Sequence record: PX104380.1
DNA from: a phage
Strand: one strand, 5' to 3'
DNA: 64,000 nt
Shown here piece by piece: positions 2,162 through 48,416 of the stretch; within the stretch, counting starts at the first letter, position 1; each line of letters begins with the position of its first letter. The notes below the pieces were generated by a model. It was not told where the DNA came from, did no database searches, and saw only the letters and a list, made by a program, of their open reading frames with translations. The position numbers were made by a program, and so were the translations under genes.

Positions 2162-2542
2162 TCACTTAGTCAAATTTTTTACACATGAATTATAAGAATT
2201 CACTACATACTCCATCGGAGCATTTTTACCAGTACGCCATTGGTAATTATTAGCCCAATTAGCCCAAAGCTCGGCGCAGTAGTTTTCAATTTTTTCTTCG
2301 CGTGTAATTACATCCGAATTACGATATGCTTGAGCAGATTCATCTGGACGAATAGCTTCGTCAAAATTCGCCTGCATTTGTTCGACTGTTTGCTTTGGAG
2401 CTTCTTTATAACACTTGACATTAGGATTATAAAATTTGCTTGAACAGTTTACAATTTTTCCTACATCAGACTGATTTACTACCGGTCCTTGAGCTACACA
2501 ACCAGTAAGACCTAATGCAATAACCAAAATAGTGATTTTCAT
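2162..2542 (-). CDS. predicted lipoprotein (imm.1-like)
   Basis: 126 aa; N-terminal signal peptide with LTGC lipobox; Cys-rich mature part. Confidence 0.5.
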   Translation of the reverse strand: MKITILVIALGLTGCVAQGPVVNQSDVGKIVNCSSKFYNPNVKCYKEAPKQTVEQMQANFDEAIRPDESAQAYRNSDVITREEKIENYCAELWANWANNYQWRTGKNAPMEYVVNSYNSCVKNLTK

Positions 2543-2552
2543 AATAATTTCC

Positions 2553-2801
2553 TCAAATGCAAGTAGTAATTACTCCAGTAGTGCTTATGCAGGTATTACC
2601 CATTTGCACACCTAAAGATCCATTTGTATTCACATGAAGATTATCATCAATTTTAACTGATATTTTACCATTAGTGTGAATAACGGTGCTAGATTCAATC
2701 ACAGGTTGAGTATCATTTTCAACACTAACAAATGGAACTGCTGCTAATGCAACTAAACAAACTGCTAAGCATCCAATAACAATTTTCATTTTATTCTCCA
2801 A
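2553..2801 (-). CDS. small secreted protein (43.1-like)
   Basis: 82 aa with N-terminal signal peptide; preceded by conserved early promoter/leader cassette. Confidence 0.45.
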   Translation of the reverse strand: MENKMKIVIGCLAVCLVALAAVPFVSVENDTQPVIESSTVIHTNGKISVKIDDNLHVNTNGSLGVQMGNTCISTTGVITTCI

Positions 2802-2823
2802 ATCTGTATTAGTTGATAGTTGT

Positions 2824-2853
2824 ATAGTACCATGGAAGAACAGTCTTGTAAAC
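2824..2853 (-). promoter_or_regulatory. T4-type early promoter (-35 GTTTACA, 17-nt spacer, -10 TACTAT) with conserved leader
   Basis: Plus-strand atagta at 2824-2829 and tgtaaac at 2847-2853; cassette repeated at five other sites. Confidence 0.55.
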
Positions 2854-2940
2854 AGTTTTGTGAAAATTTTTTAGGGAATTCTAAAGGTCCAGAATCATCT
2901 GTTTTTCATAAGTATAGATTTATATTACTTGTATGAAAAA

Positions 2941-2956
2941 GGGACCCGGAGGTCCC
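2941..2956 (-). terminator. stem-loop followed by U-run downstream of gene 43 (minus strand)
   Basis: gggacccggaggtccc inverted repeat; minus strand reads GGGACCUCCGGGUCCC then UUUUU. Confidence 0.55.
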
Positions 2957-2969
2957 TAGATTTATTCTA

Positions 2970-5666
2970 TCAGCCAAACAGGAAGTCTAACGAAGCTTTT
3001 TCTTCATAGTCCATACCAGCCGATTCACACATGCCCGCAAGCGGTTTAACAAACGATTTTTGGAACAAAGTTGAATAGTCAATCCAAGACAGTACGTCAG
3101 AACGAATTTCTTTTGGAAGTTCTGTACCCGACGGCCAAGCAATGCATTTGTCACCAAATGGATTTCCTTCACGCAATGGAAGAACCATTACTTTATTTCC
3201 ATCCAAAATTGGAGCTACACCTAAACCGCTAACAGCTCGACGATAAGTTAGCACACCACGAATATGGAACGGACATTTAAATCCTGGCCAACCTTTATCA
3301 TCATATTTCGCTATATCGTTCGCAGTTTTTACTTCAGCAATAACTTTATAGTCAAGTTGACGATATTCTTTCTCGAAGTTCTTGTAATATTCTTGGACAG
3401 ACTCTTCACCTTCCTGAAGAATACGACGAATACTTTCTTCAAGAGCTTCTTGGACCGCTTTAGGCGTTGAACTTTGCTGAGTTTCCATACCCATGATTTT
3501 TAGATGCGGTTCAGCAAATCGCTTATCTTCCATATCATAAACGTTCAGAGCATAACGCTTTTTCGCTTTCCAAAATCCACCAACGCCCTTTGAACCAAGT
3601 GGAGGGCAAGAAATAGCTTCACGGTCCATATGCATCAGATGCTCGCGGTTATTCATATAATCACATAACTCACGATATGCAACATCAATCATAGGTTCCA
3701 TCTTTTTCTTACCGAACTGATTCATGAATTCAACTAAATCGTTCTGCTCTTTGAATCGGCCAAGACCAACTTTTTCAATAACTTTATCTACACAAACATA
3801 TACCGAATCAGTATCACCTGCTGCGATGAAATCTTCGCCATTAGTTCCGCATACTTTATTCAGATATTCATTAATTTTACGAGCAATCCACTGAATACCA
3901 ACTTGGCCGAAAATTGTGATAGCAGTAGCATTTCGCAAATCATAGTAACGGAAATGAATATTACCAAGAGCACCATAAAGACTGTTAATAAGAATTTTAC
4001 GGTTCAGCTGATTTGTGTTAGCAAGTGTAGCCGCTTTTTCACATTCTTCAATCAAACTATTGAGAACAGATTCAGTATAATTCGATAGTTCATTTAAGAA
4101 ATCATCACTGAACTTAACATATCGTTCAACTTCAGGTTTAGTTGAACAAGACCCTGCGCCTTTCATAATAATCTTTTTAATAGCTTCGGCATTCATTTCT
4201 TCAGCGAACATTTTCTTTTTCCAATCTTTACGCTGGAAAAATACTTTAGCGATTTCCTTTGGAATGATACCTTCTTGATGCTTATCGTACATCCATCCAT
4301 TCGGAGAACAAGAATATTCATCACTCGGTTTAGGAGCTGTTCCTGCGATATATTCATGAATTGGATGAACTTTAAACTGACCACGAATAGTCTCAGGACT
4401 AATGTTAACCTGACGAATAATGCTCGGATACAGAGAAGTCAAGTCAAAACTCATAATATATCGACGAGCAATTGGTTTAGGTTCAAATACGAATGCACCC
4501 GGAAAACTCTGTTTAACATGCGAACCTTGTTGAGGAATAACCTTATGTTCACCTTTCAATGAGTTAAAAATAATAGCATCCCAGGTTTTAATAGGACTCA
4601 TTACACCAGAAAAAGGCATTTTAGCGTAATAAGACATACTTAAAACTAGATCGATAAACCCGCGAATTTTATCAATTGCTTGAACTGATTCTACGTCAAT
4701 GATGTTATAACTAATGTATCGTTGATGATTAGTCTCACGAAGTTTATTAATAGGACCGTCGTATGGTAATTTACCTTTTTTGGTTTCATGCTGAGCAACT
4801 GATTCCAAAGAGAATGACGGCAAATTAGTAAATGCGAATTTCTTATACAAATCTAAATAATCAAGAATAGATACGCCATCAATAGAATAAATTTCTTTGC
4901 TACCGTACATATTTTGGATAAGTTTAGATTTTACTCGACCGATTGGAGAGAAGCGTTTCATACTACGTTCACCGAGAACCATTTTAACGCGATTCATGAT
5001 ATACGGAACGTCAAACCCCTCAATATTCCAACCAGTAAAAATAGCAGGTCGTTTCTGTTCCCAGAGATTGATATATTCCATGAGCATATCACGCTCATTA
5101 TCGAATGGCATATAAATTACTCGGTCAAGAATTTCTTGAGGAACTTCATCACCACCTTCACAGTCAAGCTTAGCAGCTAACTTTGCATCCCATTTTGATA
5201 CTGAACCATACATTGAATTCAAAAGGTCGAAAACATAAAAACGATCATCAATTGAATCGTAATGAGTGATAGCATCAATTTCATATTCTGCTTTCATTGG
5301 GTCAGGAAATTTATCGCCAGTAACCTCAATGTCACAGTTAGCTACACGAACAAATTTTCGGTCATAAACAATTTCTGAACCGTATGTATCACTGATATAA
5401 GCGAGTTTAAAATCGTTCATACCGAGAGCTTCGAGACCGATATCTTCCATTCGTTTCATCCAATCTCGAGCATCTTTCATTGATGGAAATTTTTGAGGAG
5501 CGCAGTTTTTACCATAGATGTCTTTGTACTTTGACTCTTCCTTACAATGCCTAAACATAGTTGGAAGATATTCTACTTCACGAGTACGTTCCTTTCCGTT
5601 TTCATCAATATAACGTTCAACAATGTTATTTCCGACTGTTTCAATAGAGATATAAAATTCTTTCAT
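2970..5666 (-). CDS. 43: DNA polymerase (family B) with 3'-5' exonuclease
   Basis: 898 aa, same length as T4 gp43; exo motif FDIE, polymerase motifs SLYPS and YGDTDS; ATG at 5664-5666. Confidence 0.95.
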   Translation of the reverse strand: MKEFYISIETVGNNIVERYIDENGKERTREVEYLPTMFRHCKEESKYKDIYGKNCAPQKFPSMKDARDWMKRMEDIGLEALGMNDFKLAYISDTYGSEIVYDRKFVRVANCDIEVTGDKFPDPMKAEYEIDAITHYDSIDDRFYVFDLLNSMYGSVSKWDAKLAAKLDCEGGDEVPQEILDRVIYMPFDNERDMLMEYINLWEQKRPAIFTGWNIEGFDVPYIMNRVKMVLGERSMKRFSPIGRVKSKLIQNMYGSKEIYSIDGVSILDYLDLYKKFAFTNLPSFSLESVAQHETKKGKLPYDGPINKLRETNHQRYISYNIIDVESVQAIDKIRGFIDLVLSMSYYAKMPFSGVMSPIKTWDAIIFNSLKGEHKVIPQQGSHVKQSFPGAFVFEPKPIARRYIMSFDLTSLYPSIIRQVNISPETIRGQFKVHPIHEYIAGTAPKPSDEYSCSPNGWMYDKHQEGIIPKEIAKVFFQRKDWKKKMFAEEMNAEAIKKIIMKGAGSCSTKPEVERYVKFSDDFLNELSNYTESVLNSLIEECEKAATLANTNQLNRKILINSLYGALGNIHFRYYDLRNATAITIFGQVGIQWIARKINEYLNKVCGTNGEDFIAAGDTDSVYVCVDKVIEKVGLGRFKEQNDLVEFMNQFGKKKMEPMIDVAYRELCDYMNNREHLMHMDREAISCPPLGSKGVGGFWKAKKRYALNVYDMEDKRFAEPHLKIMGMETQQSSTPKAVQEALEESIRRILQEGEESVQEYYKNFEKEYRQLDYKVIAEVKTANDIAKYDDKGWPGFKCPFHIRGVLTYRRAVSGLGVAPILDGNKVMVLPLREGNPFGDKCIAWPSGTELPKEIRSDVLSWIDYSTLFQKSFVKPLAGMCESAGMDYEEKASLDFLFG

Positions 5667-17789: not shown

Positions 17790-18113
17790 TTAGTCTTCTA
17801 TGATATCTCTATCATATCCAAGTGAAATGAGAGTTTCTTTGAAGTGTTTAATGTTCTTTTGTCTAGAATCATTAATGAAAATGACAGGATACCGAATATT
17901 AAGAGATGTGAATCCAGCGCGTTTAGCAAGAGATACAATCAATGGGCGATCGTACTCAATCTTACCATTATTAGTAAGAACTTTATAGAAAGTAAAAGGA
18001 GCATTGAGCTCCTTTAGAAGTTTTGTAACTGATTGACATCCAGGACAACGACCTACTTCATCTGGAATTCCATAGACTTCAATCTTATTCTTTAAGTTCG
18101 AGTTTTGTTCCAC
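17790..18113 (-). CDS. nrdH: glutaredoxin-like NrdH
   Basis: CPGC redox motif; the 150-aa track ORF has an implausible hydrophobic N-terminus overlapping the upstream gene; GTG at 18111-18113 would give about 107 aa. Confidence 0.5.
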   Translation of the reverse strand: MEQNSNLKNKIEVYGIPDEVGRCPGCQSVTKLLKELNAPFTFYKVLTNNGKIEYDRPLIVSLAKRAGFTSLNIRYPVIFINDSRQKNIKHFKETLISLGYDRDIIED

Positions 18114-18396
18114 GAGAAATAATTCCTTGGTAAGCCCAATAAGGAGGATTAGCAGAATCCTCACCAGAGTTTTCTTCAGGAAAATAAACCTGGATAACGA
18201 AGCCGGATTCATCAAAGGTAAAATAAACCGTAGGCAGTTCACCTAACAAATCGGCACGAGCGTTGATTTCTTCGAGGTCTTGTTCACGTCCAGCCCAGAA
18301 GCTTGGGTTCAGACTACATTCATAGAAATAATAGTCATTACCGAACATATCAAAACCATTCCAACTCTCTACTACATACCGCTCAAAACTAATCAT
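18085..18396 (-). CDS. hypothetical protein
   Basis: 103 aa track ORF. Confidence 0.5.
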   Translation of the reverse strand: MISFERYVVESWNGFDMFGNDYYFYECSLNPSFWAGREQDLEEINARADLLGELPTVYFTFDESGFVIQVYFPEENSGEDSANPPYWAYQGIISRGTKLELKE

Positions 18397-18729: not shown

Positions 18730-19221
18730 TTAATCATGTGTCCACACCCCATCGGTATTTGACCAAAGTCGCTGATTATCTGATCCTCGCCACAGCTTTT
18801 TAGTCGGAAGATTTTTCTCATACTTCCCATCAATAATAACATCAACATATTTAAGCATTTCTAGTTGTTTAATATCTTCAAACTTATATCCTGTCCACAA
18901 CCAAATGCTTTTATTGGGATAAAGATTTTTAATAGTTTGAACCACAGAGTGAATCACGTCTCTGTTATCAGGATAAAGAGGGTCACCTCCGGTTATAGTT
19001 AATCCTTCTATATAATCATTATTCAAACATTCAATCAATTGTTCTAGTGTTTCACCAGTGAATGGAATACCATTTCTAGCATTCCATGTTGATTTATTAT
19101 AACACCCTTCGCATTTATGCAAACAACCTGTAACGAAAAGAACGACCCTGCATCCAGGGCCATTCACAAAGCAGCACGGGTATATTCTGTCATAATTCAT
19201 AATAATATCCAATTTTTCCAA
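18730..19221 (-). CDS. nrdG: anaerobic ribonucleotide reductase activating protein (radical SAM)
   Basis: CxxxCxxC-like cluster (CRVVLFVTGCLHKCEGC); internal Met at 19200 gives 156 aa as in T4. Confidence 0.85.
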   Translation of the reverse strand: MEKLDIIMNYDRIYPCCFVNGPGCRVVLFVTGCLHKCEGCYNKSTWNARNGIPFTGETLEQLIECLNNDYIEGLTITGGDPLYPDNRDVIHSVVQTIKNLYPNKSIWLWTGYKFEDIKQLEMLKYVDVIIDGKYEKNLPTKKLWRGSDNQRLWSNTDGVWTHD

Positions 19222-20027
19222 GCTTCATCAGTAGAATTACAGCGTTTTAGTATAAGATGTCTAGAAACTTTTATGGCATTTGAGCACTTTTTAATTGAAT
19301 CATATTTAATACCGTCAACTGAAACGGTTTTGCTCGTTGGAGAAATTTTTCCATACATTGGATTTTTTGAACCAACTTGAAGTCCTTTTAAAGCTTTTGA
19401 AAGCTTTTGTCTAGATTCCAATGACATGGGAGAATTCTTTTTACCTTCAATAATTCGCTTGCGATGAAGTTCGCGTTCTTCTTCGCTCAAAGAATTGTAA
19501 TATTTTTTAACACCGTTTGATATAGATAATTTATCTTTCTCAGACCGCTCTCCAACTAATTTACTTCTAACATCTTTTCGCTTCATAGCTATGCTTACAG
19601 CTTTATTTAAATTTGCTTGATGCTCTGGCGTACGTTTATATTTCTTTAAAGCACGTGAAATAGCTATTTTAGTTTCTACTGTTTTCTTTTTACCTTTATT
19701 TGCTAAACTATTTTTGTGGCGATGTTCAAGTGTCTGTTCATAAGCAGTTCCACCTTTTCCACCGGGTTTAATATTATATGTATTTTCTTTTAGACAATAC
19801 TCTTCGGTTACAAGTTCAGCTTCTTTATCATACATTTGTTTTTCATTATCAAAAACATGTAAAATTTCTTTATTAAAATTTTTTCTACCATATTTTAATA
19901 AAGCGGCACGAATCAATGTTCCTGATCCCATATAACCGTCATTTATGTTATCGGTGCTATGCGCACCGATATATTCCTTTGAATTAATTATATTTGTTAT
20001 TTTATAAATTATATAATACCTATGCAT
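19197..20027 (-). CDS. free-standing GIY-YIG homing endonuclease (Seg-like)
   Basis: 276 aa; N-terminal YYIIYKITNIINSKEYIGAHS, then NINDGYMGSG; NUMOD3-like repeats ETKIAISRAL and SRQKLSKALKG; overlaps nrdD stop and nrdG start. Confidence 0.7.
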   Translation of the reverse strand: MHRYYIIYKITNIINSKEYIGAHSTDNINDGYMGSGTLIRAALLKYGRKNFNKEILHVFDNEKQMYDKEAELVTEEYCLKENTYNIKPGGKGGTAYEQTLEHRHKNSLANKGKKKTVETKIAISRALKKYKRTPEHQANLNKAVSIAMKRKDVRSKLVGERSEKDKLSISNGVKKYYNSLSEEERELHRKRIIEGKKNSPMSLESRQKLSKALKGLQVGSKNPMYGKISPTSKTVSVDGIKYDSIKKCSNAIKVSRHLILKRCNSTDEAWKNWILL

Positions 20028-21837
20028 GTTTTACTCGTTTTACCATTTCTTTCATTTTACCTAAATTCCATGGAACAACGCTAGGAGTTCCAAGATATCC
20101 GCATGTTCTTCTTATGGTATTCATCTTTTTAGGATCAGTTTCTCCACAAATAGAACAAACAAATCCGTTTTCAGTAGGAGTCATTTCATGGGTACTTCCA
20201 CATGTAAAACATTTATCTACTGGCATATTAACACCAAAATAATCTAAATGTTGTGCAGCATAATCCCATACGGCCTCAAGACCCTTTAAGTTATTTTTCA
20301 TATCAGGAAGTTCAACATAAGAAATGTGGCCGCCTGTCGCAATGAAATGATATGGCGCTTCACGAGAAATCTTTTCAAACGGAGTAACATTTTCTTCTAC
20401 TGAAACGTGGAAACTGTTAGTGTACCAGCCTTTATCGGTAACATCTTTTACACTTCCATATTTTTCGGTATCAAGTTTACAGAAGCGATAACACAGGTTT
20501 TCAGCAGGAGTAGAATACAAGCTAAAAGCAAATCCGGTTCTTTCTGTCCACTGCTTAAGACGAGCATTCATTTTAGTTAAAATTTCTTGTCCAATATCAC
20601 GACCGACAAGAATATTCAATTCGTGAATACCAATGTATCCTAAGGACACTGAACTTCTACCGTTTTTAAATAACTCAATTATATCATCATCAGGTTTAAG
20701 ACGAACCCCGAATGCACCTTCTTGGTAAAGAATAGGAGCAACAGTCGCTTTAACTCCTTTTAAGGAACTAATTCTACACATCAAAGCTTCAAAACACAGA
20801 TCCATTCGTTCATTAAATAGCTCAACAAATTTCTGCTCATTGAATTGAGTTCCAATATAAGAATCTAATGCGATGCGAGGAAGATTCAATGTTACAACAC
20901 CAAGATTATTACGTCCATCAAGAATTTCATTACCGGTTGAATCTTTCCACACACTCAAGAAACTACGACAACCCATTGGAGAAACAGGAGTAGATGAGCC
21001 GGTGATAGCTTTATTGTTCTTAGCCGAAATGATGTCAGGATACATTCTTTTGCTTGCGCACTCTAGAGCAAGCTGTTTAATATCATAGTTCGGGTCGTCT
21101 TTATAAAGATTAACACCTTCTTCAACGAACATAACAAGTTTAGGGAAAATAGGAGTTATCCCATCACGACCAAGACCTTTAATACGATTTTTCAGAATTG
21201 CTTTCTGAATCATTCGTTCAGTCCAGTCAGTTCCCGTACCAAATGTAATTGTTACAAAAGGCGTTTGTCCGTTTGAACTAAAGAGAGTATTTACTTCATA
21301 TTCATAAGCTTGGAATGCATCGTATACATCTTTTTCTGTTTTAGATTGAGCATAATTCAACGCATCAGCGATTTGCCATTTTTCTGCATCCTCAATATGT
21401 TTTGCATAGGTGCGTTTAACATAAGGAGAAAGTACTTTATCTACATTCGCAAAAGTCGTTCCGCCGTATTGATGGGAAGCAACCTGTGCAGTAATTTGTG
21501 CCATAATTGCAGTAGCAACACCGATTGATTTAGGAGTTTCAATCTGTGCATTACCAAGCTTAAATCCGTTCTCAAGCATTCCTTTTAAATCTACTAAACA
21601 ACAATTAGTAAATGGAAGAGCAGGGGAATAATCAATATCATGGAAATGAATAATTCCGCTTTCATGCGCTTTCATAATAAAAGACGGGACCATATTTTTG
21701 GCAATGTGTTTAGACACAATACCAGCCATAAGGTCCCGTTGAGTTGGAAAAACACGAGAATCTTTATTAGCATTCTCGTTTAAAAGGTCTTTATTAGTTT
21801 TATGAATCAATCCTTCAATTTCTTTTTCAATTGTCAT
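20020..21837 (-). CDS. nrdD: anaerobic ribonucleoside-triphosphate reductase (glycyl radical enzyme), uninterrupted
   Basis: 605 aa single ORF; C-terminal zinc ribbon CFTCGS...CSICG and glycyl radical region. Confidence 0.9.
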   Translation of the reverse strand: MTIEKEIEGLIHKTNKDLLNENANKDSRVFPTQRDLMAGIVSKHIAKNMVPSFIMKAHESGIIHFHDIDYSPALPFTNCCLVDLKGMLENGFKLGNAQIETPKSIGVATAIMAQITAQVASHQYGGTTFANVDKVLSPYVKRTYAKHIEDAEKWQIADALNYAQSKTEKDVYDAFQAYEYEVNTLFSSNGQTPFVTITFGTGTDWTERMIQKAILKNRIKGLGRDGITPIFPKLVMFVEEGVNLYKDDPNYDIKQLALECASKRMYPDIISAKNNKAITGSSTPVSPMGCRSFLSVWKDSTGNEILDGRNNLGVVTLNLPRIALDSYIGTQFNEQKFVELFNERMDLCFEALMCRISSLKGVKATVAPILYQEGAFGVRLKPDDDIIELFKNGRSSVSLGYIGIHELNILVGRDIGQEILTKMNARLKQWTERTGFAFSLYSTPAENLCYRFCKLDTEKYGSVKDVTDKGWYTNSFHVSVEENVTPFEKISREAPYHFIATGGHISYVELPDMKNNLKGLEAVWDYAAQHLDYFGVNMPVDKCFTCGSTHEMTPTENGFVCSICGETDPKKMNTIRRTCGYLGTPSVVPWNLGKMKEMVKRVKHA

Positions 21838-22307
21838 TTTAAACTCTTTCTAAGCTGCTTCTTGAATGAAGCTATTAATTGTGTTTTGGTGTCAGATTCA
21901 TTATATTCAAATCCTCTTTGAAGCATCTCGGCAATCATTTCCTCTTTTCCTAAACGAGAAAATTCCTTTGATTTATCTCCAACAAAGTTAGGGTGAATAT
22001 TATTTTGGGTGTAATCGGATTTTAAATAAGTAAGTAAATTTTCTAACCATTCAAGATAATCAACACCTTGCCCCTTTAAGCCAGAACGATTAAATTTATG
22101 TTTCATTTGACCTTCCGCGGCATTGCAGAGATTACAAAGCAATCCACGTACCTTTCCTGCTTTTGGTCCATTTAATTCATGGTCATGGTCAAGGTGATTA
22201 GCTTGAACATCAGGATTTAATTCTCGTTGGCAAATTAAGCATTTACCATTTTGTGCATCATAAAATTTCTGTTTTTCTTCTTTATATAATTTGCCAGTCA
22301 ATAACAT
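21834..22307 (-). CDS. 49: endonuclease VII (Holliday junction resolvase)
   Basis: 157 aa, same length as T4 gp49; CLIC...CNLC zinc site and HLDHDH. Confidence 0.8.
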   Translation of the reverse strand: MLLTGKLYKEEKQKFYDAQNGKCLICQRELNPDVQANHLDHDHELNGPKAGKVRGLLCNLCNAAEGQMKHKFNRSGLKGQGVDYLEWLENLLTYLKSDYTQNNIHPNFVGDKSKEFSRLGKEEMIAEMLQRGFEYNESDTKTQLIASFKKQLRKSLK

Positions 22308-43190: not shown

Positions 43191-43660
43191 TCAGTGATAA
43201 AGTTATTTAAATTTTGAGTATATTTCTTTTCATCAAAAATCTTTTGTTGTCTGCGTAAACGCCATGGCATTTCAATGAACACGCACCACATTCCTGATAA
43301 TATTGCTGCTGTCAAAATATTAACAAGCATAATTAAAAGAATCCAATCTCCTGTTCTGCCTATTGGACTTTCACCAAAGAAGCAAAATACAAATGATGTC
43401 ACAGGAAAACTAATGATATACCACAGAATCATAATCTTATTTGTAAACCAATCAGCGTTCGTTAGCTTAGCGCGACCATTATGAATACACACGAATTTAT
43501 CATCTGTTATAATAGATGGCTTAGCTGCTTGATATCCCATTCTAAACTCCCTAATCAACAAATTTTTCATATCTTCGGAACAACCATTCCAGTCAACTCT
43601 ATTAACTGAAATGCCATCATCCCCATCATCTAAATCATACCAGCGAGTTTTTAAAATCAT
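43172..43660 (-). CDS. hypothetical membrane protein (e.x region)
   Basis: 162 aa with central transmembrane segments. Confidence 0.5.
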   Translation of the reverse strand: MILKTRWYDLDDGDDGISVNRVDWNGCSEDMKNLLIREFRMGYQAAKPSIITDDKFVCIHNGRAKLTNADWFTNKIMILWYIISFPVTSFVFCFFGESPIGRTGDWILLIMLVNILTAAILSGMWCVFIEMPWRLRRQQKIFDEKKYTQNLNNFITECRKLK

Positions 43661-47398: not shown

Positions 47399-47474
47399 TG
47401 GTCGAGGCAGTAGGGATCGAACCTACGACCTAGGACTTAGAAGGTCCTTGCTCTTCCTTCTGAGCTATGCCCCG
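47399..47474 (-). tRNA. tRNA-Arg (anticodon UCU)
   Basis: 76 nt cloverleaf by hand folding; acceptor CGGGGCA/UGCCUCG, anticodon loop CUUCUAA, T-loop UUCGAUC, CCA encoded. Confidence 0.85.
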
Positions 47475-47478
47475 TAAT

Positions 47479-47554
47479 TGGGGTGACCGATGGGAGTCGA
47501 ACCCATGACTACGAGAATCACAATCTCGAGTTCTACCAACTGAACTACGGCCAC
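47479..47554 (-). tRNA. tRNA-His (anticodon GUG)
   Basis: 76 nt; anticodon stem CGAGA/UCUCG, loop UUGUGAU, discriminator C73, CCA encoded; no encoded G-1. Confidence 0.8.
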
Positions 47555-47668
47555 ATTAATACCTACTCCAACAATCAAGATGTCTTCACACGAAATTAAG
47601 AGAAGAGTGATCAGTTCAACCCCTATAATCGCGTCAAGTAGATATTAATGTGACAGTTGTCACAAATT

Positions 47669-47743
47669 TGGCGGACGTGATAGGATTCGAACCTATAACC
47701 AATCGCTTAACAGGCGATCGCTCTGCCATTGAGCTACACATCC
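47669..47743 (-). tRNA. tRNA-Asn (anticodon GUU)
   Basis: 75 nt; anticodon stem AUCGC/GCGAU, loop CUGUUAA, T-loop UUCGAAU, CCA encoded. Confidence 0.8.
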
Positions 47744-47747
47744 AAAT

Positions 47748-47834
47748 TGGTGGGGAGTGGTGGAGTCGAACCACCCGAGTCGCAATGACAATGAATTTAC
47801 AGTCCACACCGCTACCTCTACGGGATAACTCCCC
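47748..47834 (-). tRNA. tRNA-Tyr (anticodon GUA), class II
   Basis: 87 nt with long variable arm; anticodon loop CUGUAAA; acceptor GGGGAGU/ACUCCCC; CCA encoded. Confidence 0.75.
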
Positions 47835-47843
47835 AAATTAATT

Positions 47844-47918
47844 TGGTGGCCCTGGGTGGAATTGAACCACCATCTGGCGATTATGAGTCGCTTGCTTGAA
47901 CCTTCCAGCTACAGGGCC
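47844..47918 (-). tRNA. tRNA with CAU anticodon (Ile2 by position, or Met)
   Basis: 75 nt; anticodon loop CUCAUAA; acceptor GGCCCUG/CAGGGCC; CCA encoded. Confidence 0.75.
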
Positions 47919-47919
47919 T

Positions 47920-47995
47920 TGGTGCTGATTAACGGAATCGAACCGCCGACCTTCTCATTACAAGTGAGTTGCTCTACCTACTGAGCTAAATCAGC
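47920..47995 (-). tRNA. tRNA-Thr (anticodon UGU)
   Basis: 76 nt; anticodon loop CUUGUAA; T-loop UUCGAUU; CCA encoded. Confidence 0.8.
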
Positions 47996-48000
47996 AAAAC

Positions 48001-48090
48001 TGGCGGAGGTGATAGGATTCGAACCTATGAATCGCCGGAGCGACTGCCGGTTTTCAAGACCGGTGCATTCAACCACTCTGCCACACCTCC
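48001..48090 (-). tRNA. tRNA-Ser (anticodon UGA), class II
   Basis: 90 nt; anticodon stem CCGGU/ACCGG, loop CUUGAAA; long variable arm; CCA encoded. Confidence 0.8.
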
Positions 48091-48092
48091 AG

Positions 48093-48166
48093 TCTCCATA
48101 CAAGGATTTGAACCTTGGACCTCCTGATCCCAAATCAGGCGCTCTACCAAACTGAGCTACACGGAG
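48093..48166 (-). tRNA. tRNA-Pro (anticodon UGG)
   Basis: Anticodon stem CCUGA/UCAGG, loop UUUGGGA; C1-G72; 3' CCA not encoded. Confidence 0.8.
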
Positions 48167-48176
48167 TAAATTAAAT

Positions 48177-48250
<74 letters not shown>

Positions 48251-48255
48251 AAATT

Positions 48256-48342
48256 TGGTGCGAGAAGTGGGACTCGAACCCACAAGGAAATCATTCCGCA
48301 GCATTTTAAGTGCTGTGCCTTTACCAATTTGACCATTCTCGC
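48256..48342 (-). tRNA. tRNA-Leu (anticodon UAA), class II
   Basis: 87 nt; anticodon stem CAGCA/UGCUG, loop CUUAAAA; long variable arm; CCA encoded. Confidence 0.8.
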
Positions 48343-48343
48343 G

Positions 48344-48416
48344 CTGGGAATAAAGGACTCGAACCTTTGCATCCTGGAATCAAAATCCAGTGCCTTACCA
48401 ACTTGGCTAATTCCCA
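48344..48416 (-). tRNA. tRNA-Gln (anticodon UUG)
   Basis: 73 nt; U1-A72; anticodon stem CUGGA/UCCAG, loop UUUUGAU; CCA not encoded; 1 nt from tRNA-Leu. Confidence 0.8.

Follow-up and report, generated by a model that had tools for sequence, protein, structure and literature searches.

The closest described systems are those of phage T4 and its relatives. In T4, the SegA-SegG endonucleases cut near their own loci and cause localised marker exclusion, autorepression by I-TevI is known, and mobC is located between nrdG and nrdD (review). MobE of T4 drives the I-TevIII intron into new genomes (trans-homing). A different gene occupies this position in RB3, in which record AY262138.2 was deposited as 'SegH, homing endonuclease', and according to the title of the corresponding paper segH takes the place of mobC (Sandegren, Nord and Sjoberg, Nucleic Acids Res 2005). 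The gene is already annotated as segH in dozens of genome records, while the genome records of RB3-RB10 wrongly label it 'segD'. SegH is reportedly an active homing endonuclease that cuts DNA near its own locus and homes in mixed infections; segH-carrying DNA is said to be cut by it too, and a possible advantage of this to have been discussed.

We analysed a 64,000-nucleotide stretch of phage DNA (record PX104380.1, hereafter the window), in which the gene order on the minus strand is 49-nrdD-segH-nrdG, the same as in T6 and RB3. The three genes at the locus are:

19197..20027, minus strand: segH, free-standing GIY-YIG homing endonuclease gene, 276 aa (ORF listing and match to RB3 and T6 SegH)
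20020..21837, minus strand: nrdD, large subunit of the anaerobic ribonucleotide reductase, 605 aa, without an intron (Pfam)
18730..19200, minus strand: nrdG, activase of the anaerobic reductase, 156 aa, ATG at 19200 (Pfam)

The 605-aa ORF was identified as NrdD by Pfam (PF13597, E 6.6e-172, with the whole model matched, in addition to Gly_radical), and this end-to-end match, together with the ORF listing, confirmed the single unbroken frame described in the initial annotation. The nrdG ORF was listed at 163 aa (18730-19221, minus strand, from a TTG at 19221) and matched NrdG-type activases through Fer4_12 (E 8e-49) and Radical_SAM. Since nrdG is annotated as 471 nt long in T6, T4 and CrRp10 alike, we take this TTG to be merely an upstream in-frame alternative start. 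The segH ATG sits within ...AAAC-ATGCATAG, and its overlap with the nrdD stop is therefore 8 nt, while its TGA and the nrdG ATG at 19200 overlap by 4 nt (ATGA). The GIY-YIG ORF thus adjoins nrdD and overlaps both of its neighbours, as had been noted. The GC content of segH is 0.29-0.33, compared with 0.36-0.40 for nrdD.

The encoded protein was identical to RB3 SegH (ABI48949.1) at 272 of 276 residues (98.6%, equal length), the substitutions H104R, K115R, V117E and V158A being conservative and none of them falling on a family-invariant residue. At this locus T6 has a gene annotated as segH, and only 3 of 276 residues set its product apart from the window protein; the proteins of RB3, T6 and KM16 are likewise 276 aa long. 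Matches were also obtained to PHROG 314 'homing endonuclease' (E 8e-59) and to the group I intron endonuclease model TIGR01453 (E 5.9e-12, under the cut-off of that model). This ORF is very likely segH, a homing endonuclease gene that is free-standing and has been inserted between nrdD and nrdG in a T6-like Tequatrovirus. The free-standing GIY-YIG endonuclease of the initial annotation, for which intron-less homing or marker exclusion around nrdD had been proposed, corresponds to this known gene, given the identity to RB3 SegH and the shared locus. As a discovery it carries little weight, since gene, locus and activity have been in print since 2005.

SegH falls into three parts: a GIY-YIG nuclease domain at the N-terminus, a linker that is helical and includes NUMOD3, and a DNA-binding domain like that of I-TevI at the C-terminus. 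They are encoded as follows:

19752..20027, minus strand: GIY-YIG catalytic domain, residues 1-92 (alignment, PF19835, hhalign, AF2 and Foldseek)
19344..19430, minus strand: NUMOD3 motif in the helical linker/DNA-binding region, residues 200-228 (PF07460, E 3.7e-07, 30.4 bits with a cut-off of 20.4)
19209..19352, minus strand: C-terminal I-TevI-like DNA-binding domain, residues 226-273 (PF20987, E 2.7e-4, 21.2 bits, under the cut-off of 27)

The C-terminus was 30% identical to that of I-TevI over 53 aa (BLASTP). At the N-terminus, the GIY and YIG motifs are I6-I7-Y8 and Y19-I20-G21, with Ile in place of the first Gly; the ten residues between them agree with the spacing of 10-11 expected in the GIY-YIG superfamily. 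Alignment of 36 homologues showed that Tyr8, Tyr19, Gly21, Glu69 and Asn85 are invariant, so the loss of catalytic residues that the initial annotation had considered was not seen at these positions. Y8, Y19 and G21 align to Y6, Y17 and G19 of I-TevI, and Asn85 was paired with I-TevI Asn90 by hhalign. The same program paired I-TevI Glu75 with SegH Glu75 and not with Glu69; the latter nevertheless appears to be the likelier equivalent of the catalytic glutamate, because it is invariant and its distance to the Asn is 16 residues, compared with 15 in I-TevI, the match being ambiguous at the residue level. Neither the 36-homologue alignment nor hhalign revealed an equivalent of the catalytic I-TevI residue Arg27 in SegH; the I-TevI segment bearing this residue is inserted with respect to the SegH family. 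Residue 40, an Arg in the window protein, is not conserved, being Gln in KM16 SegH and Lys or Leu in others.

The SegH profile matched I-TevI residues 1-99 with an hhalign probability of 94.8%. The AF2 model had a pLDDT of 92-98 over residues 1-90, and its three best PDB matches were I-TevI catalytic domains (Foldseek; probability 1.00; TM 0.59-0.64 normalised to the target; best matches 1mk0 and 1ln0). A phmmer search of SegH against PDB sequences returned nothing meaningful, and a profile search of the PDB placed I-TevI on top, yet with an E-value of only 0.2-0.4. PF01541 scored 16.4 bits (cut-off 22.6), while PF19835 (SegE_GIY-YIG) scored 18.6 bits on full-length SegH and 30.9 bits on the isolated N-terminal domain (cut-off 25). 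The earlier description of the protein as a canonical GIY-YIG endonuclease is borne out by Y8, Y19-I20-G21, E69, N85 and the I-TevI-like fold, with the qualification that no equivalent of Arg27 could be identified and that the Pfam GIY-YIG cut-offs are missed by the full-length protein, only its isolated N-terminal domain passing PF19835.

These two departures could be read as signs that segH is the remnant of a homing endonuclease, inactive and decaying, and kept since its deletion would interfere with nrdD and nrdG, which it overlaps. Decay after fixation is frequent among free-standing endonuclease genes, and I-TevIII of T4 is defective (review). We consider this highly improbable. The ORF is full length, as in RB3, T6 and KM16, every family-invariant residue is kept, the catalytic domain is modelled at high confidence, and the RB3 protein, reported to be active, differs at only 4 residues. 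Moreover, about 92% identity was retained by the block containing segH after transfer between genera (see below), and segH is far from fixation, because only about 10% of related genomes have it.

Close relatives differ in whether they carry segH at this fixed site. Of roughly 700 records of T4-like coliphages, about 66-70 have the gene (68-70 being those in which 80% or more of the segH locus is covered), whereas the junction is empty, with nrdD abutting nrdG, in about 583 and is occupied by mobC in about 47 (T4 and near-copies). In the empty-site phages nrdD and nrdG overlap by ATGA; T2, RB69 and CrRp10 are among the phages without segH. At the segH position, T4 has the HNH gene mobC and not I-TevII. 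Further afield, Klebsiella phage Earwig has a SegH-like gene of 47% identity immediately downstream of its nrdD, and when IMG/VR was scanned for close relatives of segH, distant homologues alone came up (identity over the catalytic domain no higher than 54%).

Comparison with a phage of another genus and with segH-free relatives delimited the following features:

19110..20115, minus strand: mobile block common to the window and Moonvirus KM16, comprising segH and about 90 bp each of nrdD and nrdG (identity steps)
20020..20098, minus strand: segH-linked recoded nrdD 3' end, codons 581-605, candidate location of the SegH target in segH-free genomes (fixed differences at 20053-20094)
19171..19189, minus strand: segH-linked nrdG 5' variant block, codons 4-10, with I6F and C10D compared with segH-free alleles (fixed differences)

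The Tequatrovirus window and Salmonella phage KM16 (genus Moonvirus) share a 1-kb block of about 92% identity. Per gene, identity to KM16 was 91.8% for segH, 73.7% for nrdD and 75.2% for nrdG; it rose from about 0.75 to at least 0.85-0.98 within the block and went down to 0.6-0.7 outside. Elsewhere, KM16 is 97-100% identical to the segH-free phage Moon. These identity steps indicate that segH was transferred between phage genera with about 90 bp on each flank, and point to horizontal spread together with co-converted flanks. When 5 segH-carrying and 5 segH-free genomes were compared over 4.7 kb, all fixed differences between the two groups, as defined by these ten genomes only, fell at 20053-20094 and 19171-19189. 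Three further fixed sites within segH were artefacts of the alignment against T4 mobC. The NrdD tail reads GTPSVVPWNLGKMKEMVKRVKHA in segH-carrying and GNPNERGFNLGKNKEIMHRVKHQ in segH-free genomes, with 11 of the last 22 residues changed, compared with 4 of the first 583. The codon of the radical residue Gly580 is at 20098-20100, and the nrdD differences begin four codons beyond it. The locus offers a worked example in which a mobile unit, including a rewritten NrdD C-terminal tail, is delimited by sequence comparison alone, and the same comparison documents its transfer between two phage genera.

From the position of these differences we infer that the SegH target would lie in a stretch of roughly 115 bp running from the last nrdD codons into the first nrdG codons, in segH-free alleles between nrdD codon about 580 and nrdG codon about 10. 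In a mixed infection, SegH would cut both DNA strands of a segH-free co-infecting phage close to where nrdD meets nrdG; GIY-YIG enzymes leave 3' overhangs of 2 nt. Recombination-dependent repair, with the segH-carrying genome as template, would then bring in segH together with about 90 bp of the adjoining nrdD and nrdG sequence. The outcome would be homing with co-conversion of flanking markers, which in genetic terms would amount to marker exclusion. A 9-mer at the segH start, ATGCATAGG, recurs in the nrdD 3' end of segH-free alleles. It was rejected as an ancestral insertion point or operator, the nrdD 3' ends being collinear without a gap, and the match, which is offset by 18 nt, may be a coincidence.

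Upstream of nrdD, a pattern scan detected one promoter-like element:

21900..21925, minus strand: MotA-type middle promoter lookalike, TGCTTCA-N12-TATAAT (consensus match only)

This putative promoter is the likely source of an nrdD-segH-nrdG transcript. Upstream of segH, the pattern scan found no exact late promoter TATAAATA, and sigma-70-like sites were fewer than in shuffled sequence. The gene thus has no recognisable promoter of its own and is probably cotranscribed with its neighbours nrdD and nrdG; that it overlaps each of them (by 8 nt and by ATGA) is consistent with translation from a shared message. RNA structure at the segH 5' region was not significantly stable (z = -1.68), leaving the start codon unsequestered. 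This last result bears on the possibility that segH is more than selfish DNA and has been co-opted for a phage function, for example excluding rival genomes or regulating nrdD and nrdG by binding its own locus. The occurrence of ATGCATAGG both at the segH start and in segH-free nrdD 3' ends would permit SegH to bind at its own start, comparable with I-TevI autorepression, and SegH reportedly cuts segH-carrying DNA as well, for which a possible advantage is said to have been discussed. Such a role is nonetheless unlikely: about 90% of related phages do without segH, the start site is not sequestered by RNA structure, and the ATGCATAGG match is single, short and perhaps coincidental.

The initial annotation had contrasted this locus with the intron-containing nrdD of T4. 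The corresponding position in the window is:

21300..21301, minus strand: unoccupied site at which nrdD of T4 carries its group I intron, at the codon 179/180 boundary (T4 homology breaks around the 1033-nt T4 insert)

An Rfam search of the whole window detected no group I intron, while the nrdD intron was detected in the positive controls T4, EC128 and BYEP01. The length of nrdD is the same as that of the intron-less NrdD of RB69, CrRp10 and ime09. An overlooked nrdD intron, which had been raised as an objection, is therefore ruled out by the end-to-end Pfam match, the length equal to intron-less orthologues and the Rfam result with its controls. At the insertion site, GAATATGAAGTAAATACTCTCTTTAGT is common to all 7 of the 7 intron-less genomes compared, whereas the intron-carrying T4 and EC128 have another exon sequence, common to both. 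The absence of the intron here was thus borne out, but as a contrast with T4 it carries little information, since an intron-less nrdD is the usual state (intron in 0 of 34 sampled segH-free non-T4 records). Neither is segH an alternative to the intron, because both occur together in 15 of 49 distinct segH-carrying phages among the records listed.

This co-occurrence (15/49 compared with 0/34; Fisher p = 2e-4, with shared ancestry ignored) raises the possibility of a cooperation between SegH and the nrdD intron, in which SegH would cut the intron insertion site or its vicinity, or would spread the intron through long co-conversion tracts, with the trans-homing of the I-TevIII intron by T4 MobE as a precedent. 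The insertion site, however, is about 1.27 kb from segH and has no segH-linked differences, the intron-less alleles there being identical in segH-carrying and segH-free genomes. In addition, the KM16 block stops about 90 bp into nrdD, the window has no intron, and phage F1 carries the intron without segH. We therefore regard cooperation of this kind as improbable, and there is a similarly small chance that SegH breaks near the nrdD 3' end might also help to spread the intron 1.27 kb upstream in a MobE-like manner. If they did, this would explain why the intron is seen outside T4 mostly in segH-carrying genomes, and the window would represent a segH-carrying genome yet to gain the intron, with the common intron-less homing-site sequence.

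Taking segH as a homing endonuclease gene that spreads on its own account, the locus can be set against the known systems. The RB3 and T6 SegH represent the same gene, with the same nrdD/nrdG position and the same overlaps with both neighbours. T4 MobC, an uncharacterised HNH protein, is encoded at the same junction, co-oriented with and overlapping both neighbours, but belongs to an unrelated family (HNH as opposed to GIY-YIG). The nrdD 3' end of T4 is still of the type seen in segH-free genomes, and the start of mobC duplicates the nrdG start (MNYDRIY), indicating an insertion event distinct from that of segH. SegA-SegG of T4 are likewise encoded by free-standing GIY-YIG genes between conserved genes, but at other loci and with other targets, and are about 30% identical to SegH, the nearest being SegD (31%). 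The intron-encoded I-TevI and I-TevII of T4 share the modular plan of a GIY-YIG domain, a linker and an I-TevI-type C-terminal DNA-binding domain. Unlike these, SegH is not encoded within an intron, no zinc finger was detected in it, and in place of the I-TevI helix bearing Arg27 and His31 it has a conserved H23-x-T25...D30-x-Y32-M-G-S-G36 loop.

The 276-aa ORF between nrdD and nrdG lies in a T6-like Tequatrovirus window (~96% identity to T6 across 24 kb), to which no record in the phage collection compared was identical. The features considered are as follows.

Features of the nrdD/nrdG locus (window positions)
21925-21900, minus strand: MotA-type middle-promoter-like sequence upstream of nrdD (pattern scan)
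21834-22307, minus strand: gene 49, endonuclease VII (ORF list and Pfam)
20020-21837, minus strand: nrdD, 605 aa (Pfam NrdD end to end, E 6.6e-172)
20020-20098 and 19171-19189, minus strand: recoded NrdD C-terminal tail and nrdG changes that always accompany segH
19197-20027, minus strand: segH, 276 aa (ORF list)
ATG at 19200, minus strand: nrdG, radical-SAM activase (Pfam; small ORF 3' of segH)

As described in the initial annotation, nrdD was a single uninterrupted frame and the GIY-YIG gene overlapped both neighbours: sequence inspection placed the segH ATG within ...AAAC-ATGCATAG-G, in an 8-base overlap with the nrdD stop, and the nrdG ATG and segH TGA shared an ATGA overlap. A TTG at 19221, taken from the mechanical ORF list, was rejected as the nrdG start because the T6, T4 and CrRp10 annotations all give a 471-nt nrdG. 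Elsewhere in the window, a 103-aa ORF (18085-18396) between nrdH and 55.8 shares sequence with the 5' end of a longer nrdH frame; EC128, CrRp10 and F1 list it as a hypothetical protein, and the T4 and T6 annotations of this interval lack it. Ten clustered tRNA genes (47402-48416, minus strand) correspond to the T4-type tRNA region, the site of segB in T4.

By tblastn, ~70 phage records matched the ORF at an identity of at least 95%. One of these, AY262138.2, is a 2.7-kb RB3 deposit annotated as 'nrdD, partial; SegH (segH), complete; nrdG, partial', with the product 'homing endonuclease'. The window protein differed from RB3 SegH at 4 of 276 residues and from the product of the T6 gene annotated segH at 3, and by this similarity the ORF is the already described segH, confirming the observation of a free-standing homing endonuclease at nrdD and supporting its interpretation. 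In the RB3, RB5, RB6, RB7, RB9 and RB10 records (KM606994-KM606999, NC_025419) the gene at this locus is labelled 'segD', but both its sequence and its location identify it as segH. SegH reportedly cleaves near its own locus, is said to cleave segH-carrying DNA as well, and its gene reportedly homes in mixed infections.

Salmonella phage KM16 (NC_070779.1, Moonvirus) carried segH at the same site, with an identity to the window of 91.8% for segH versus 73.7% for nrdD and 75.2% for nrdG. The identity profile stepped up at ~20115 and down at ~19110, delimiting a block (2560-3570 in the KM16 sequence, L010) composed of segH and ~90 bp of each flank, at ~92% against a background of 74-75%, while up to ~85 bp before the nrdD stop KM16 was 97-100% identical to the segH-free Citrobacter phage Moon. 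In this Moonvirus, segH arrived together with ~90 bp of flank on either side from a donor of Tequatrovirus type. Homing accompanied by short co-conversion tracts would leave a footprint like this 1-kb block, in agreement with the initial annotation, which had proposed homing or marker exclusion, and the block shows that the segH unit crossed a genus boundary. As segH itself was already described, and is of low interest in that respect, what this analysis adds is the limits of the mobile block, with evidence for inter-genus transfer.

We also compared 4.7 kb between five segH-carrying phages (the window, T6, RB3, G3F7 and EC128) and five segH-free ones (CrRp10, F1, RB69, ime09 and T4). All fixed differences between the two groups fell at 20053-20094 or 19171-19189, with the exception of three sites, which were alignment artefacts of segH aligned against mobC. 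The NrdD tail was GTPSVVPWNLGKMKEMVKRVKHA with segH versus GNPNERGFNLGKNKEIMHRVKHQ without it, and 11 of the last 22 residues of NrdD differed versus 4 of the first 583. Recoding begins four codons after Gly580 (codon at 20098-20100), the glycyl-radical site established for T4 NrdD. In NrdG only I6F and C10D differed. These changes may reflect passive co-conversion, target-site protection or co-adapted NrdD/NrdG contacts. The 9-mer ATGCATAGG, which encodes MHR at the segH start (20019-20027), recurs in alleles that lack segH, within the 3' end of nrdD but 18 nt further upstream. There it specifies M-H-R of NrdD and is kept in T4, RB69, CrRp10 (L006, ~2047-2055), ime09 and Moon; this repeat may be a coincidence, an insertion relic or a binding site.

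Junction states were scored with a 900-nt query made of the joined nrdD and nrdG flanks. In ~583 records the two genes abutted with no insert, overlapping by ATGA in the empty-site phages, while ~66 records had an 836-nt insert corresponding to segH and ~47 a 635-nt insert corresponding to mobC (T4 and its copies). The segH-free junction was well conserved in Tequatrovirus, Mosigvirus and Moonvirus, which fits the probable location of the SegH target at the nrdD/nrdG junction of segH-free genomes. The title of Sandegren, Nord and Sjoberg (Nucleic Acids Res 2005) states that segH replaces mobC, which a review lists among uncharacterised genes as an HNH gene lying between nrdG and nrdD, the position shown in the T4 record. 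T4 mobC opens with a second copy of the nrdG start, ATGAATTATGACAGAAT (encoding MNYDRIY; L002, the T4 sequence, ~4520-4539; NC_000866 ~43519-43538), which marks its insertion, inside the initial nrdG codons, as an event separate from that of segH.

Among the listed T4-like phages of Klebsiella, the stretch from nrdD to nrdG was ~170-200 bp longer and a small hypothetical ORF was annotated between the two genes. Klebsiella phage Earwig (L013, PP738774.1) carried at 2459-3310 a SegH-like GIY-YIG gene of 47% identity, located 53 nt 3' of a 705-aa nrdD and followed by two small ORFs and then nrdG, suggesting a long association of the SegH-type endonuclease lineage with the nrdD 3' end. The nrdD/nrdG junction is therefore a recurrent landing site. 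Relatives belonging to the G3F7 and PM123 group have a ~180-nt extra gene between pin and gene 49 (501-677 in G3F7, L004, MZ234035.1), and their nrdG is annotated in two pieces (3828-4299 in G3F7), as might result from a frameshift or from a sequencing error.

The initial annotation had contrasted the intron-less nrdD with the intron of T4. Homology between the window and T4 ran from 22400 to 21302 and then from 21299 to 20045, the 1033-nt T4 intron falling between the two stretches. With Rfam, the window gave no group I intron at the gathering threshold, and relaxing the limit to E up to 1 for the 3.8 kb surrounding the locus gave none either, while the nrdD intron was detected in T4, EC128 and BYEP01 as positive controls. 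The vacant site, GAATATGAAGTAAATACTCTCTTTAGT, was the same in 7/7 intron-less genomes compared and different from the exon sequence common to the intron-carrying T4 and EC128. The absence of an intron was thus upheld, although not its significance: an intron-less nrdD is the norm, since none of 34 sampled segH-free non-T4 records had the intron, and segH and the intron are not mutually exclusive, because 15 of 49 distinct segH-carrying phages, among those listed, had both. This apparent enrichment (Fisher p = 2e-4, a statistic that ignores shared ancestry) would be compatible with trans-homing of the intron by SegH, but phage F1 (L007) has the intron without segH. Among the genomes compared, the intron site also showed no segH-linked polymorphism; we retain trans-homing only as an improbable reading. 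BYEP01 (L011, OR757453.1), one of the 15 phages with both, has a ~345-nt nrdD insert (866-1101; Rfam group I intron, 72 bits) whose annotation includes no endonuclease ORF, so that it appears to be an intron without a homing endonuclease gene.

A pattern scan upstream of segH gave no exact match to a late promoter, and the overlap of the gene with both neighbours suggests a promoter-less cassette that would be read from the nrdD message, an arrangement shared by several T4 seg and mob genes according to the review. The Shine-Dalgarno sequence was weak (GAG, 7 bases before the ATG), and fold analysis revealed no significant structure in the segH 5' region. One robust hairpin, whose arms form a perfect 9-bp inverted repeat around a 5-nt loop (TATCGGTGC-GCATA-GCACCGATA, 19949-19971), lay inside segH codons 19-27 (YIGAHSTD), leaving the start site untouched; it was identical in KM16 and had no T-run after it on the sense strand, while on the antisense strand it scored as terminator-like.

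In full-length SegH, NUMOD3 (residues 200-228) scored above the Pfam cut-off, and the I-TevI DNA-binding domain (residues 226-273) and SegE_GIY-YIG below it. The isolated N-terminal 102 residues reached 30.9 bits for SegE_GIY-YIG (cut-off 25), PF01541 remaining under its cut-off here too. Alignment with 35 database homologues revealed as invariant Y8, T11, Y19, G21, H23, T25, D30, Y32, G34-S35-G36, G47, F51, E69, V73, Y84, N85 and G89-G90. The family profile matched I-TevI residues 1-99 (hhalign probability 94.8%), and the AlphaFold model (pLDDT 92-98 for residues 1-90) had the I-TevI catalytic domain as its three best PDB matches. The description as a canonical GIY-YIG protein holds for this fold and for Y8, Y19, G21, E69 and N85, with a reservation for Arg27: the helix bearing this residue in I-TevI is an insertion relative to the SegH family, whose alignment has no invariant basic residue in its place, and Arg40 of the window SegH is Gln in KM16. 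The partner of I-TevI Glu75 is ambiguous, and we favour the invariant Glu69 as the candidate.
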